Of a DNA stretch of 64,000 nt, positions 11,732 to 43,762 are shown in pieces. Numbering within the stretch: position 1 is the first letter of the stretch; every line of letters starts with the position of its first letter. Made by a program: the position numbers and the translations under genes. The notes below the pieces were generated by a model. It did no database searches and was not told the origin of the DNA. It worked only from the letters and a program-made list of their open reading frames with translations. Location: the NCBI RefSeq assembly GCF_003018255.1, contig NZ_CP027440.1. One strand, 5' to 3'. This DNA comes from Escherichia coli. Its GTDB lineage: Bacteria; Pseudomonadota; Gammaproteobacteria; Enterobacterales; Enterobacteriaceae.

Positions 11732-11920
11732 CAGGGACATCCTTTTATCATCGGGAATACGAAAGAAAAGGGAGAATAAACGTCTTACTTATAGAACAGT
11801 GAAGAATGCCACAATTTTACGCTTTGAAAATGATGACACTATCACAGTTGGCGCATTCATTAACGATAGGGTATAAGTAAAACAATAAGTTAACACCGCT
11901 CACAGAGACGAGGTGGAGAA

Positions 11921-15144: not shown

Positions 15145-15321
15145 ATCTTATCCGACCTTTCAGGCCAGATCCTCGGAAGGGGAAGTTGATTAATTTGTGT
15201 GAAATACACATTGAAAGCCGATTCGAAGAAAGTGAACCGGCATTTTCAGTGGCTAGTATAGCGTAAGGTACTGTAAAGCCGCCAGAGGGTTAAAATTCAG
15301 ACAGCTGAAAAATGAAAAACT

Positions 15322-15420
15322 GCCTGATGCGCTATGCCGAACAGGCCTACGCAGTCCCCGCAATATATTGAATTTGGACGATTTTGTAGGCCTGGCAAGG
15401 CGTTTACGCCGTATCCGGCA
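15322..15420. repeat. REP/BIME cluster between ytfL start and msrA end
   Basis: GCCTGATGCG...GGCCTAC and GTAGGCCTGGCAAGGCGTTTACGCCGTATCCGGCA motifs. Confidence 0.6.
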
Positions 15421-24350: not shown

Positions 24351-24450
24351 GCCTGATGCCGATTCGTAGGCCGGATAAGGCGCTCGCGCCGCATCCGGCG
24401 GTTGTGCGCTGAAGCCTGATGCGACGCTTACCGCGTCTTATCATGCCTAC
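24351..24450. repeat. REP/BIME cluster inside the ytfQ-ytfR intercistronic region
   Basis: Two REP units (GCCTGATGCCGATTCGTAGGCCGGATAAGGCG...GCATCCGGCG and GCCTGATGCGACGCTTACCGCGTCTTATCATGCCTAC). Confidence 0.7.
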
Positions 24451-30586: not shown

Positions 30587-30710
30587 GCCTCAGCCTGATA
30601 GAGTGTGTGTAGGCCGGATAAGGCGTTCACGCCGCATCCGGCATTTGAGCATAGTGCCTGATGCGACGCTTGATGCGTCTTATCAGGCCTACAGGTGCAC
30701 CGCATCCGGC
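30587..30710. repeat. REP/BIME cluster between convergent mpl and yjgA
   Basis: At least two full REP units (GTAGGCCGGATAAGGCGTTCACGCCGCATCCGGC; GCCTGATGCGACGCTTGATGCGTCTTATCAGGCCTAC). Confidence 0.7.
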
Positions 30711-39739: not shown

Positions 39740-40687
39740 TCAGGACAGGGTGGCGGGAATGATGATTTGTTGCGGTTCGCTGCGCCCGGTTACCTGCGCG
39801 ATCAACTGGCAGGCCGCCTGGCGTCCAGCTTCGGCGTAACCGGGATCTACGGTGACGATCTCCGGATGGAGGAATTTCATTAACGGCGTATTACCGACGC
39901 TCGCCAGTTGCAAGGTGTCGATGCGTTGCTCTTGCAGGTATTTACTTGCGCCAAGTGCCAGCGTGTCGGTTGCGCACAGTAACGCGGTAGTTTCAGGCGT
40001 AATCACTTTTGCTACGTTCTCATAGCCTTGCTTCATAGCAAGCCCTGGCAGAGCGGCAACGGGATGCAATTTATGCGCTTTGCAGAACGCCAGGTAGGCT
40101 TCGTGACGTCGCTTACCGGTCGTCACGTCACTGTGCGGCACGCCGAGATAACTGATATTACGATGTCCCTGGTCATACAGCCGTTGCATCAGGATCTTGA
40201 TTGCCCCTTCGTCGTCATAACAGACCGAAGCAAAGCCTTTTGCGTCACGCGCCAGCAGAACCAGCGATGACTGCCAGTGGGCTAACATTTCTTCTGTTAT
40301 GCCGGTAAAACCGAACAGCACTACGCCGTCGATATTACGCCGTTTCAGCACCCCCAAATGTTCGGCAACTAATTGTGGGGAAAACTGACTTTCCATCATG
40401 ATTGGATCGTAACCTTGTTCATAGAACGCTGGCAGCATGGTTTGAACGGCGAGATTTTCTGACAACGAATCCAGACGGGTAACAATGATGGCGACCACTT
40501 TATCGCTTTGCCCACGCATAGCGCGCGCAGAGCGGGAAGGGGAAAATCCATGCTGATTCATCACTGCTTCAACACGCTCGCGCGTGCGCTGGCTCACGCC
40601 GCTTTCGTTATTCAGCACCCGGGAAACCGTAGATTTCCCCACGCCGCTTAAGCGCGCGATGTCTTTGATGGTCAGCCGATTTTGCAT
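39740..40687 (-). CDS. treR: trehalose operon repressor (LacI family)
   Basis: 315-aa ORF with N-terminal HTH (TIKDIARLSGVGKSTVSRVLNN). Confidence 0.9.
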   Translation of the reverse strand: MQNRLTIKDIARLSGVGKSTVSRVLNNESGVSQRTRERVEAVMNQHGFSPSRSARAMRGQSDKVVAIIVTRLDSLSENLAVQTMLPAFYEQGYDPIMMESQFSPQLVAEHLGVLKRRNIDGVVLFGFTGITEEMLAHWQSSLVLLARDAKGFASVCYDDEGAIKILMQRLYDQGHRNISYLGVPHSDVTTGKRRHEAYLAFCKAHKLHPVAALPGLAMKQGYENVAKVITPETTALLCATDTLALGASKYLQEQRIDTLQLASVGNTPLMKFLHPEIVTVDPGYAEAGRQAACQLIAQVTGRSEPQQIIIPATLS

Positions 40688-40761
40688 CCTGTTGTCCCAT
40701 AACGTGTTGTTTAATTATTTGAGCCTAACTTTACCTGTGCATTCAGCAATGGGTAAAGTCT

Positions 40762-40778
40762 GGTTTATCGTTGGTTTA
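40762..40778 (+). promoter_or_regulatory. PhoP box of the mgtA promoter
   Basis: GGTTTA-tcgtt-GGTTTA direct repeat, with -10-like TATTAT 12 bp downstream (40791-40796). Confidence 0.7.
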
Positions 40779-40871
40779 GTTGCCAGCAGGTATTATATCG
40801 CCATAAATGCTACGAATATTATTGGATTCTCCTTATTATTTGCGGCGCTTTTTTCACTTACCGGAGGTTAT

Positions 40872-40925
40872 ATGGAACCTGATCCCACGCCTCTCCCTCG
40901 ACGGAGATTAAAACTTTTCCGGTAA
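40872..40925 (+). CDS. mgtL: mgtA leader peptide MgtL (17 aa, proline-rich)
   Basis: ATG preceded by ggaggt SD; encodes [17 protein letters not shown] within the mgtA 5' leader; the ORF-track 113-aa frame 40584..40925 is mostly non-coding. Confidence 0.75.
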
Positions 40926-41065
40926 GCCCGTCTTTTCACGGCGTTACCGGATGCGTAAGGCCGTGACGTTTTAACGTCCCTGCTCAGCTTTATTACCTTC
41001 AGGTAAGGCTTCGCCACGCCTGAAGACATTTCTGTACTGTTTCAGACAGTGCGGAGGGACTCCTT

Positions 41066-43762
41066 ATGTTTAAAGAAATTTTTACCCGGTTCATTCGCCA
41101 TTTACCTTCCCGTCTGGTTCATCGCGATCCATTGCCTGGCGCGCAGCAGACAGTGAATACGGCGGTCCCGCCGTCCTTAAGTGCGCATTGCCTGAAAATG
41201 GCGGTGATGCCCGAAGAAGAATTGTGGAAAACGTTCGACACCCATCCGGAAGGATTAAATCAGGCGGAAGTGGAATCTGCCCGCGAACAACATGGTGAAA
41301 ATAAATTACCCGCACAACAACCGTCGCCGTGGTGGGTTCATTTATGGGTCTGCTATCGCAACCCCTTTAATATTTTACTCACCATTCTCGGCGCTATTTC
41401 TTACGCCACGGAAGATTTATTTGCCGCGGGCGTTATCGCGCTAATGGTCGCTATTTCTACGTTGCTGAACTTTATTCAGGAAGCACGTTCCACTAAAGCG
41501 GCAGATGCCCTGAAAGCGATGGTCAGCAATACTGCGACGGTGCTGCGCGTAATTAACGACAAAGGCGAAAATGGCTGGCTGGAGATCCCGATCGACCAAC
41601 TGGTGCCCGGCGATATTATAAAACTGGCGGCAGGGGATATGATCCCGGCAGATTTACGTATCTTGCAGGCGCGGGATCTGTTCGTCGCTCAGGCGTCGTT
41701 AACCGGTGAGTCTCTGCCCGTGGAAAAAGCCGCTACTACTCGCCAGCCGGAGCACAGCAATCCGCTGGAGTGCGACACCCTGTGTTTTATGGGCACCACC
41801 GTGGTGAGCGGTACGGCACAAGCAATGGTGATTGCCACAGGGGCCAATACCTGGTTTGGTCAACTGGCGGGGCGTGTTAGTGAGCAGGAAAGCGAGCCGA
41901 ATGCCTTTCAGCAAGGGATTAGCCGCGTCAGTATGCTGCTGATTCGCTTTATGCTGGTGATGGCTCCGGTGGTGTTGCTTATCAACGGTTACACCAAAGG
42001 CGACTGGTGGGAAGCGGCACTGTTTGCGCTTTCGGTCGCGGTAGGCTTAACGCCAGAAATGTTGCCGATGATTGTTACCTCGACGCTGGCGCGCGGCGCA
42101 GTAAAGCTGTCGAAACAGAAAGTGATCGTCAAACATCTGGATGCCATTCAGAACTTTGGCGCAATGGATATTCTGTGCACTGATAAAACCGGCACCCTGA
42201 CGCAGGACAAAATTGTGCTGGAGAATCATACCGATATCTCCGGTAAAACCAGCGAACGCGTGCTGCATAGCGCGTGGTTGAACAGTCATTACCAGACCGG
42301 ACTTAAAAACCTGCTTGATACCGCGGTGCTCGAAGGTACGGATGAAGAGTCAGCGCGTTCGCTGGCCAGCCGTTGGCAAAAAATTGATGAGATTCCGTTT
42401 GATTTCGAGCGTCGTCGGATGTCGGTGGTAGTGGCAGAAAATACCGAACACCATCAGCTGGTTTGCAAAGGTGCATTGCAGGAAATCCTCAATGTGTGTT
42501 CGCAGGTGCGTCACAATGGCGAGATTGTGCCGCTCGATGACATCATGCTGCGTAAGATTAAGCGGGTTACTGATACGCTGAATCGTCAGGGGCTGCGCGT
42601 GGTTGCGGTGGCGACGAAATACCTGCCAGCGCGTGAAGGAGATTACCAGCGGGCGGATGAATCCGACCTGATCCTCGAAGGATATATTGCTTTCCTTGAT
42701 CCGCCAAAAGAGACAACCGCTCCGGCACTGAAGGCATTAAAAGCGAGTGGAATTACCGTAAAAATCCTTACTGGCGACAGTGAGTTAGTTGCAGCGAAAG
42801 TGTGCCATGAAGTGGGGCTGGATGCGGGAGAGGTGGTCATTGGTAGTGATATTGAAACGCTATCTGACGATGAACTGGCAAATCTCGCACAGCGCACCAC
42901 GCTGTTTGCCCGCCTGACGCCGATGCATAAAGAACGCATTGTGACCTTACTGAAGCGCGAAGGGCATGTGGTTGGCTTTATGGGCGATGGTATTAATGAT
43001 GCGCCCGCCTTACGCGCTGCGGATATCGGCATTTCTGTGGACGGCGCGGTAGATATTGCCCGTGAAGCGGCTGATATCATCCTGCTGGAAAAAAGCCTGA
43101 TGGTGCTGGAAGAGGGGGTTATTGAGGGACGTCGCACTTTCGCCAACATGCTGAAATACATCAAAATGACGGCGAGTTCTAACTTCGGTAATGTGTTCAG
43201 CGTGCTGGTGGCGAGTGCTTTCTTGCCCTTCCTGCCGATGTTGCCGTTACACTTGCTTATTCAGAACTTGCTGTACGATGTGTCACAGGTGGCGATCCCG
43301 TTTGATAACGTCGACGACGAGCAAATTCAAAAGCCGCAGCGTTGGAATCCGGCGGATCTGGGGCGCTTTATGATCTTCTTCGGACCGATCAGCTCGATCT
43401 TCGATATTCTGACGTTTTGCCTGATGTGGTGGGTATTCCATGCCAACACGCCGGAAACGCAAACGCTGTTCCAGTCGGGCTGGTTTGTGGTGGGCTTACT
43501 GTCGCAAACGCTGATTGTGCATATGATCCGTACCCGTCGTGTACCGTTTATTCAGAGCTGTGCATCGTGGCCGTTAATGATCATGACCGTGATCGTGATG
43601 ATTGTCGGGATCGCATTGCCGTTTTCACCGCTGGCCAGTTATCTGCAGCTGCAGGCGCTGCCGTTAAGCTATTTCCCGTGGCTGGTTGCGATTCTGGCAG
43701 GGTATATGACGTTAACCCAGTTGGTGAAAGGGGTCTATAGCCGTCGTTACGGCTGGCAGTAA
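41066..43762 (+). CDS. mgtA: Mg2+-importing P-type ATPase
   Basis: 898-aa ORF with DKTGTLT phosphorylation motif and GDGINDAPAL hinge motif. Confidence 0.95.
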   Translation: MFKEIFTRFIRHLPSRLVHRDPLPGAQQTVNTAVPPSLSAHCLKMAVMPEEELWKTFDTHPEGLNQAEVESAREQHGENKLPAQQPSPWWVHLWVCYRNPFNILLTILGAISYATEDLFAAGVIALMVAISTLLNFIQEARSTKAADALKAMVSNTATVLRVINDKGENGWLEIPIDQLVPGDIIKLAAGDMIPADLRILQARDLFVAQASLTGESLPVEKAATTRQPEHSNPLECDTLCFMGTTVVSGTAQAMVIATGANTWFGQLAGRVSEQESEPNAFQQGISRVSMLLIRFMLVMAPVVLLINGYTKGDWWEAALFALSVAVGLTPEMLPMIVTSTLARGAVKLSKQKVIVKHLDAIQNFGAMDILCTDKTGTLTQDKIVLENHTDISGKTSERVLHSAWLNSHYQTGLKNLLDTAVLEGTDEESARSLASRWQKIDEIPFDFERRRMSVVVAENTEHHQLVCKGALQEILNVCSQVRHNGEIVPLDDIMLRKIKRVTDTLNRQGLRVVAVATKYLPAREGDYQRADESDLILEGYIAFLDPPKETTAPALKALKASGITVKILTGDSELVAAKVCHEVGLDAGEVVIGSDIETLSDDELANLAQRTTLFARLTPMHKERIVTLLKREGHVVGFMGDGINDAPALRAADIGISVDGAVDIAREAADIILLEKSLMVLEEGVIEGRRTFANMLKYIKMTASSNFGNVFSVLVASAFLPFLPMLPLHLLIQNLLYDVSQVAIPFDNVDDEQIQKPQRWNPADLGRFMIFFGPISSIFDILTFCLMWWVFHANTPETQTLFQSGWFVVGLLSQTLIVHMIRTRRVPFIQSCASWPLMIMTVIVMIVGIALPFSPLASYLQLQALPLSYFPWLVAILAGYMTLTQLVKGVYSRRYGWQ

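Follow-up and report, generated by a model that had tools for sequence, protein, structure and literature searches.

What governs transcription of the magnesium importer gene mgtA in this strain of Escherichia coli, and by what route does its untranslated leader decide whether the gene is expressed? The window analyzed here is a 64,000-nucleotide stretch of contig NZ_CP027440.1 (RefSeq assembly GCF_003018255.1), and the region under study extends from the first base of a PhoP box to the last base 5' of the mgtA start codon as read from the sequence (positions 40762–41065). We conclude that this interval is almost certainly the native promoter and 5' leader of E. coli mgtA. The mgtA promoter, its leader and the leader peptide gene mgtL are already known, having been textbook material since 1999–2010, and are annotated in RefSeq and curated in Rfam.

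The encoded MgtA protein scores 1605.9 bits against the NCBIfam equivalog model TIGR01524 (cut-off 610.75), and the mgtA annotation is shared by E. coli K-12 and SA186 at the corresponding positions. The 378-nt region between treR and mgtA is 100% identical to that of SA186 and 99% identical to that of K-12, the homologous positions of K-12 MG1655 being occupied by treR (b4241), mgtL (b4702), and mgtA (b4242). Of 5426 complete E. coli genomes searched by megablast, 5425 contain this region, and the feature annotated beneath the matches is "mgtL: mgtA regulatory leader peptide MgtL". Separately, E. coli GCU-H1 carries an IS1 element right after leader position +3 and is missing mgtL, mgtA, and part of ridA. 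At the RNA level, positions 40857–40972 of the plus strand match the full length of Rfam model RF01056 (Magnesium-II; model positions 1–115 of 115) with 125.8 bits and an E value of 2.6e-26, against a gathering score of 40. Consistent with membership of this family, the element sits in the 5' untranslated region of a gene for an mgtA-type ATPase, an arrangement that is the same in 46 aligned relatives. The element belongs to the RF01056, MgtL, and PhoP architecture I promoter families, and its component features are listed in table 1.

Table 1. Features of the mgtA promoter and leader and of the flanking genes, with window coordinates
Feature	Position	Strand	Basis and remarks
treR, divergent neighbor upstream	39740–40687	−	NCBIfam TIGR02405, 590.7 bits; K-12 and SA186 annotation
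PhoP box, direct repeat GGTTTA-TCGTT-GGTTTA	40762–40778	+	Sequence; overlaps −35 position
−10 hexamer TATTAT	40791–40796	+	Sequence; exactly 12 nt 3' of PhoP box
Transcription start (predicted)	40803–40806	+	A40803 by homology to Salmonella +1
5' proximal leader segment	40803–40856	+	Upstream alignments; length varies between genera
Stem-loop A, three-way junction	40857–40926	+	Rfam RF01056 consensus structure, MFE fold
Shine-Dalgarno of mgtL, GGAGG	40863–40867	+	Sequence; 4 nt before ATG; in 5' arm of stem A
mgtL, 17-codon leader ORF	40872–40925	+	Translation
Stem C, alternative, ON state	40918–40951	+	Constrained folding; excludes stems A and B
Stem-loop B, OFF state, 10 pairs	40938–40964	+	Rfam structure, constrained folding
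H3, small hairpin GACGUU-UU-AACGUC, directly 3' of stem B	40965–40978	+	87% paired; 3 of 6 pairs compensatory
H4, distal hairpin CUUCAGG...CCUGAAG with inner GGC/GCC helix	40997–41025	+	Covariation
H5, last leader hairpin CUGUACUGU...ACAGUGCGG	41032–41054	+	91% paired; 7 of 9 pairs compensatory
mgtA, Mg2+-importing P-type ATPase, regulated gene	41066–43762	+	ORF list, 898 amino acids

The PhoP box, GGTTTATCGTTGGTTTA, comprises two GGTTTA half-sites in direct orientation (40762–40767 and 40773–40778) on either side of a TCGTT spacer, has no mismatch to (T/G)GTTTA-N5-(T/G)GTTTA, and would span −41 to −25 relative to a transcription start (+1) at position 40803. KGTTTA-N5-KGTTTA occurs this once on the two strands of the 64-kb window, the expectation from shuffled sequences being 0.02. 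Scanning the plus strand with the sigma-70 consensus returned no −35/−10 pair; the lack of a −35 match is expected for a class II promoter that depends on its activator, the PhoP box standing in for the −35 element. The promoter fits architecture I (class II), with 12 nt between the end of the box and the downstream −10 hexamer and, where the box overlaps the −35 position, no good −35 hexamer, following the definition given for PhoP promoters by Zwir et al. (2012; PMC3335776).

Related loci were retrieved using a DNA pattern for the first nine mgtL codons only. Because this pattern is silent on the promoter, conservation of the latter is an independent test. The search returned 57 loci, 52 of them genuine mgtL loci belonging to Enterobacteriaceae apart from one in an unclassified proteobacterial metagenome-assembled genome; the remaining five, from outside the Enterobacteriaceae, lie in long unrelated ORFs and were discarded as chance pattern matches. 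A PhoP box (at most two mismatches) followed after exactly 12 nt by TAnnnT is present in 51 of the 52 distinct upstream regions and in 10 of 5200 shuffled ones, and the upstream alignment indicates that both the 12-nt spacing and a TATnAT-type −10 element have been kept among the related loci. The predicted PhoP box of Shigella flexneri mgtA is the identical 19-mer tGGTTTAtcgttGGTTTAg, and a fragment carrying that promoter was shifted by phosphorylated PhoP in electrophoretic mobility assays and protected from DNase I (PMC5775216). The footprint coordinates given in that study, −184 to −159 and −152 to −124, are not readily reconciled with where the box lies, their reference point being unclear. 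The sequence of the direct repeat, together with these experiments in close relatives, suggests that PhoP binds the E. coli repeat described here.

Like the predicted E. coli promoter, Salmonella mgtA has an architecture I promoter, with the box TGGTTTATCGTTGGTTTAA placed 12 nt from the −10 element and activity that is independent of the RNA polymerase alpha-CTD; its +1 has been mapped 7 nt after the −10 element, giving a leader of 264 nt (PMC3335776). The seventh base after TATTAT in the window is A40803, which lies in a conserved GCCATAA context in the alignment, and a start at this base gives a leader of 263 nt. The synthetic mgtL-mgtA insert used to study EttA retains the native 5' untranslated region from the transcription start (Ousalem et al. 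2024; PMC11282234). It begins at the equivalent of 40805/40806 (K-12 has G at 40806), 2–3 nt downstream of the homology-based +1. The start site assigned here is therefore a prediction from Salmonella homology and published construct design. In the supplement text of the Cappable-seq study (PMC4782308) and of Kim 2012 (PMC3415461), we found no coordinates near the locus.

The leader ORF mgtL reads ATG GAA CCT GAT CCC ACG CCT CTC CCT CGA CGG AGA TTA AAA CTT TTC CGG TAA, with proline at codons 3, 5, 7, and 9 and acidic residues at positions 2 and 4 (EPDP). The predicted peptide is identical to that of K-12 b4702 and to RefSeq WP_001387276.1, and its N-terminus, MEPDPTPLP, fits the motif M-[DE]-P-[DE]-P-T-P-L-P. 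All of the retrieved enterobacterial loci have an ORF of 15–17 codons that ends in arginine followed by the stop codon and lies just 5' of mgtA. Conservation of the first nine codons is not independent evidence here since they were fixed by the search pattern. The GGAGG preceding mgtL is invariant (46 of 46 aligned leaders), and the stop codon (UAA, 40923–40925) lies within the 3' arm of stem A, UUUCCGGUAAG (40916–40926), inside a CCGGUAA that is invariant across these leaders from some 15 named genera. For E. coli mgtL, published toeprinting, reporter fusions, and in vitro translation support translation of the ORF and control of mgtA by it (PMC11282234; bioRxiv 10.1101/2021.02.02.429294). 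A second candidate leader peptide, a 34-codon ORF starting 5 nt after +1 (40807–40911), was rejected because it is confined to Escherichia, with lengths of 21, 25, 34, or 39 codons and a varying frame.

These results bear out the initial annotation of the interval, which had proposed a GGTTTA-N5-GGTTTA PhoP box with TATTAT about 12 bp downstream, a leader of about 260 nt, and a 17-codon mgtL ORF with its own Shine-Dalgarno sequence, and had considered the whole a known element, as the RF01056 score and the annotation of mgtL in K-12 and RefSeq confirm. The annotation had named a mapped start at odds with the promoter as the observation that would overturn it; both the Salmonella +1, which projects to A40803, and the E. 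coli construct are compatible with the promoter.

The 5' proximal segment of the leader, which holds a second −10-like hexamer, TATTAT, at 40834–40839 (leader +32 to +37), varies in length, Kosakonia, Phytobacter, and some Enterobacter having about 30 nt fewer. According to the per-species list, a perfect TATAAT occupies this position in 22 of 35 Enterobacteriaceae with the long leader, and in the alignment the hexamer forms a conserved island flanked by variable columns. RNAalifold produced no consensus pair in +1 to +65, on which basis a conserved RNA hairpin around the hexamer was rejected. The leader may hold a second, unrecognized DNA-level signal, a suggestion that we regard as distinctly tentative and more doubtful than not. 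Such a signal could form the core of an internal promoter that works without PhoP and whose transcripts would still include stem A and mgtL, or it could be a sigma-70-dependent promoter-proximal pause site that would time ribosome loading on mgtL. No −35 match accompanies the hexamer. A PhoP-independent, Rob-dependent start has been mentioned for Salmonella mgtA (PMC3335776), to which the hexamer may correspond as a candidate internal promoter. Compared by eye, the sequence just after +1 agreed with the Mar/Sox/Rob box consensus at 9–10 of its 14 specified positions; this partial match was not counted as evidence.

Leader structures were assessed by counting pairs for two explicit structures in an alignment of 46 distinct leaders that starts 22 nt 5' of mgtL and stops at the mgtA ATG. 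The fold of the leader is more stable than that of shuffled sequences (z = −3.66). The outer helix of stem A pairs CUUACCGGAGG (40857–40867) with UUUCCGGUAAG, and the stem, which has inner hairpins at 40873–40887 and 40892–40907, encloses the mgtL Shine-Dalgarno sequence and nearly all of mgtL. Across the alignment 98% of outer-helix cells are paired, with 7 of 11 pairs invariant and one compensatory pair. Stem C pairs UCCGGUAA (40918–40925) with UUACCGGA (40944–40951) and adds a CCGU/ACGG helix (40928–40931/40938–40941); folded alone, this segment has a predicted energy of −17.0 kcal/mol, and 89% of the cells of stem C are pairable across species. As the core of stem C is invariant, covariation is uninformative for it, and the near invariance of both A and C means that covariation says little for or against either.

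Covariation is more telling elsewhere in the leader. Stem B is paired in 97.6% of cells and 5 of its 10 pairs have changed on both sides. The outer helix of H4 is 83% paired and has changed on both sides at 4 of its 7 pairs, 2 of the 3 pairs in the H4 inner helix covary, and the 3' arm of H5 overlaps the first two G residues of the mgtA Shine-Dalgarno sequence (GGAGG, 41053–41057). The OFF structure overall (stem A with its two inner hairpins, stem B, and the three distal hairpins) is paired in 93.4% of cells and has 22 pairs changed on both sides, compared with 12.7 ± 1.9 in shuffles and 7–12 when partners are slid by one to three columns. In Atlantibacter (three genomes), alignment columns 8, 77, 98, and 114 have changed jointly from C/G/C/G to U/A/U/A, or to U/A/U/G in one genome. 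These columns link stem A (8–77), stem C (77–98), and stem B (98–114), and the joint change is a single clade-level event that agrees with the prediction of the switch model and supports the A/C/B register. Stems A and C are thus supported by one clade-level event and by predictions from energy models.

The initial annotation had suggested prediction of alternative stem-loops as a check, and folding did recover them. Left unconstrained, the E. coli leader is predicted to fold as A+B. Holding 40857–40885 or 40857–40912 unpaired, as with a ribosome on the Shine-Dalgarno sequence and early codons, gives stem C. Blocking 40895–40930, which mimics a ribosome that has reached the last mgtL codons, leads to stem B and no stem C. 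The modeled constraints reproduce the published switch between A+B and C, and the mutually exclusive RF01056 folds sharing the CCGGUAAG segment were found in silico. The leader structures proposed here are supported by covariation and folding, and the regulation that follows is taken from the literature.

Based on these elements, we predict that phosphorylated PhoP would bind the direct repeat in the place of a −35 element and, with the TATTAT hexamer, start transcription at about A40803. The leader of approximately 263 nt would fold as stem-loops A and B or as stem C, alternatives that arise because CCGGUAAG (40919–40926) can pair with the upstream CUUACCGG in stem A or with the downstream UUACCGG in stem C. 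Translation of mgtL would, according to the literature, select the fold. When Mg2+ and charged tRNA-Pro are plentiful, the translating ribosome would reach the UAA and cover the 3' arm of stem A, blocking C and allowing B to form, whereupon transcription would stop within the leader, 5' of mgtA. At low Mg2+ the ribosome would be destabilized at EPDP, and at low proline it would stall at the proline codons; the 5' arm of stem A would then be occupied or unpaired, CCGGUAAG would pair downstream to form stem C, and polymerase would read through into mgtA.

Published data agree that the leader adopts A+B when Mg2+ is high and C when it is low, with mgtL as the main determinant (PMC11552253). The EPDP sequence of E. 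coli MgtL causes intrinsic ribosome destabilization, which is worse at low Mg2+ or upon loss of bL31 (Chadani et al., bioRxiv 10.1101/2021.02.02.429294), and EttA stabilizes the ribosome on EPDP so that mgtA is repressed (PMC11282234). Substitution of the acidic residues (E2Q/D4N) abolishes expression of an mgtA fusion, and northern blots relating to mgtL and EttA fit control by termination (PMC11282234). The four proline codons of mgtL confer the proline response, as PMC3641672 summarizes the work of Park (2010). The description of the leader in the initial annotation as a Mg2+/proline-sensing attenuation device is fair, with the nuances that Mg2+ now appears to act largely via translation of mgtL, through destabilization of the ribosome at EPDP, and that studies disagree on what Rho does in E. 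coli.

Whether Mg2+ is sensed by RNA binding or through translation efficiency is not settled in the literature (PMC11552253), and the leader might be a true Mg2+ riboswitch in which the RNA binds Mg2+ and passes from C to A+B without mgtL translation, mgtL providing only a proline or osmotic input. This was the original model (Cromie 2006, as summarized in PMC11552253) and survives in the Rfam label for the element, "Magnesium riboswitch aptamer"; moreover, Mg2+-dependent folding of the Salmonella RNA alone modulated Rho termination in vitro (PMC11552253). Later work, however, places Mg2+ sensing in the translation of mgtL (PMC11552253; PMC11282234; bioRxiv 10.1101/2021.02.02.429294): mutation of E2 and D4 eliminates expression of the mgtA reporter, and loss of bL31 as well as EttA alter mgtA via mgtL. 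We consider the riboswitch a real but somewhat unlikely alternative to sensing through mgtL translation.

How transcription would be ended in the OFF state of this mgtL-controlled leader is a further question. Our scan for a hairpin followed by a T-run found no intrinsic terminator between 40600 and 41200. The K-12 Term-seq data (Adams et al. 2021 supplement) contain RNA 3' ends at 4467490 and 4467576. Subtracting 4426559 converts K-12 positions to those of the window and places the two ends at 40931, 5 nt past stem A, and at 41017, inside the H4 hairpin at about +215 and 49 nt before the mgtA ATG. The latter end was classified as a "significant Rho termination region" with a Rho score of 1.56 and an intrinsic-terminator score of 1.46 (threshold 3), and the region was flagged as bicyclomycin-sensitive ("Yes"), the downstream/upstream reads being 221/776 without and 735/1651 with the drug (Adams et al. 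2021). A C/G ratio of 2.5–2.8 is reached only at 40873–40902 and 40973–41002. The lack of an intrinsic terminator and the K-12 3' end at 41017 in a bicyclomycin-sensitive region make Rho the likely terminator. ChIP with the rho R66S mutant, on the other hand, gave E. coli mgtA a Rho termination score of 1.0, that is, no Rho effect (Bastet et al. 2017; PMC5499598), and a 2025 review cautions that the Salmonella mechanism "may not be conserved in E. coli". These reports lead us to rate Rho, which is disputed in the literature, as likely but unproven in the E. coli mgtA leader. The authors of the ChIP study noted that R66S may not affect every terminator, possibly including the mgtA site (PMC5499598).

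The rho R66S score is also an argument for a Rho-independent ending, which might reflect an intrinsic terminator, RNase processing, or a control of mgtA translation exerted by the last hairpin. The strong covariation of that hairpin and its overlap with two bases of the mgtA Shine-Dalgarno sequence would suit translational control, and processing could account for the 3' end at 40931, immediately past stem A. Against these possibilities stand the absence of any terminator-like hairpin with a T-run in the scanned interval and the properties of the −49 end, whose intrinsic score is below threshold and which lies inside the bicyclomycin-sensitive region. We judge an ending without Rho to be improbable, and termination by Rho remains our preferred reading. 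The least credible alternative, that a short ORF and promoter motifs have coincided in an ordinary intergenic region with no regulatory role, appeals to the general abundance of 17-codon ORFs and 6-mers but can be dismissed in light of the 0.02 boxes expected per window, the Rfam E value of 2.6e-26, the promoter layout in 51 of 52 loci, the retention across 46 leaders of a 15–17-codon ORF with its stop in the invariant CCGGUAA, and a large experimental literature.

Alignment to K-12, the other check proposed with the initial annotation, gave the 99% identity reported above with mgtL and mgtA at homologous positions. The gene order (treR-mgtL-mgtA-ridA), the PhoP box, the −10 hexamer, and the MgtL peptide are all the same, and the RNA is identical from stem A to the mgtA ATG. 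There are two substitutions within the interval: position 40783, between box and −10 hexamer, is C here and T in K-12, and 40806 (leader +4) is A here and G in K-12. Neither falls in the box, the −10 hexamer, mgtL, the stems, or another recognized functional element. A40806 lies directly 5' of the ATG that opens the unconserved 34-codon ORF, a reading frame that we attribute to chance.

Salmonella enterica differs from E. coli in its PhoP box only by the 3' flanking base and has the same 12-nt spacer, with TATGAT instead of TATTAT as the −10 hexamer and a perfect TATAAT rather than TATTAT at leader +32 to +37. Salmonella MgtL, MDPEPTPLPRWRIFLFR, resembles that of E. coli in length and proline positions but differs in its C-terminal half and has DPEP in place of the EPDP motif. 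Stems A, B, and C and the distal hairpins are shared between the two leaders, with compensatory changes. G40943 is specific to Escherichia and creates a mismatch in stem B (G40943–G40959) and in stem C, each of which loses one pair; Salmonella, with C at this position, has one more pair in each of the two stems. The leader has been established as Rho-dependent in Salmonella, whereas for E. coli this is disputed; G40943 might be related to the reported difference.

Like mgtL, the trpL, hisL, and pheL attenuators use the translation speed of a leader peptide to choose between alternative hairpins. They end in an intrinsic terminator hairpin with a U-run, a feature that the scan of the mgtA leader did not find, and the mgtA leader differs from them in sensing Mg2+ through ribosome stability, as well as proline. 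The corA leader with its corL uORF is similar in having a three-way junction around the uORF, mutually exclusive OFF (A+B) and ON (C) structures, and Rho-dependent termination (PMC11552253). It nevertheless belongs to another gene with another sequence, corL has one proline, and its promoter is not PhoP-dependent (PMC11552253); the corA leader is absent from the window.

The earlier reading of the region as the mgtA leader is thus supported, and none of the analyses made here yielded evidence contradicting the identification of promoter and leader. The value of this examination is confirmatory rather than one of discovery, the only point of research interest being the disputed action of Rho on the leader in E. 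coli. As the strain has an intact and essentially K-12-like copy of the element, its mgtA should be under normal control by PhoP/PhoQ and by the leader. The locus is still in use as a model of the way in which a single attenuator integrates ribosome stability, proline supply, EF-P, EttA, and Rho.

In the alternative folds of the mgtA leader, window positions 40857, 40926, 40943 and 40959 (columns 8, 77, 98 and 114 in our alignment of 46 leaders, which spans from 22 nt before mgtL to the mgtA start codon) link stems A and B of the OFF fold with stem C of the ON fold. At these four positions three Atlantibacter loci have changed together from C/G/C/G to U/A/U/A, one of them (L039) in the variant form U/A/U/G. 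Because the positions connect stems A, C and B, this co-change, counted as one clade-level event, puts the three-way switch to a compensatory test in nature.

Within the leader, a second −10-like hexamer, TATTAT, lies at window 40834–40839 (+32 to +37 from the inferred transcription start, and columns 32–37 in the alignment of the leader 5' segment). Most Enterobacteriaceae with long leaders have a perfect TATAAT at the aligned position (22 of 35, by our own count from the per-species list), flanked on either side by variable columns. Neither a −35 match nor a consensus RNA hairpin was found at this hexamer, which may act as a sigma-70 pause element or belong to a promoter of the Rob type that does not depend on PhoP. 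On the treR side, a predicted sigma-70-like promoter is situated just upstream of the PhoP box, and in Shigella the PhoP box of mgtA, taken as its reverse complement, has also been listed among candidate sites for treR (PMC5775216).

The locus also varies among relatives. In E. coli GCU-H1 (NZ_CP178558.1, 4119–5118) the match stops at the equivalent of window 40805 and is followed by an IS1 element, with mgtL, mgtA and part of ridA missing; this strain is a natural mgtA deletion with its junction at the leader start. In three loci from Kosakonia and a related MAG (L015, L034 and L055) the mgtL and mgtA start codons are ∼291–295 nt apart versus the usual ∼194 nt, indicating a ∼100-nt insertion in the distal leader. 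A 34-codon ORF overlapping mgtL is probably a chance occurrence, as it is confined to Escherichia, where its frame and length (21–39 codons) vary. The Rfam matches elsewhere in the window are unrelated to the mgtA leader.

Additional features of the 64-kb window (entries marked Rfam are matches above the gathering score)
Feature	Position	Strand	Remark
Ysr276	58423–58617		Rfam
ES239	11732–11854		Rfam
naRNA4 (CssrE), two copies	30612–30689, 24369–24447		Rfam
STnc450	15206–15263		Rfam
ES036 (CssrF)	15343–15385		Rfam
34-codon ORF	40807–40911	+	Starts 5 nt past inferred +1; frame differs from mgtL
Sigma-70-like promoter	40714–40741	−	TGCACA, 16 nt, AATAAT; predicted, faces treR

Two 3' ends mapped by Term-seq in K-12 (4467490 and 4467576; Adams et al. 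2021) correspond to window 40931 and 41017. The first falls 5 nt past stem-loop A, which implies a leader RNA of ∼129 nt, and the second falls inside the distal hairpin, on its loop side, 49 nt before mgtA. The latter was flagged as Rho-dependent (Adams et al. 2021), in conflict with a ChIP study of a rho mutant (R66S) that saw no Rho effect (PMC5499598). Position 40943 is G in Escherichia (A in two species) and C in other genera, and the Escherichia base creates a mismatch in stem B (partner 40959) and stem C (partner 40926) alike. This mismatch might be linked to the reported difference in Rho dependence between E. coli and Salmonella.
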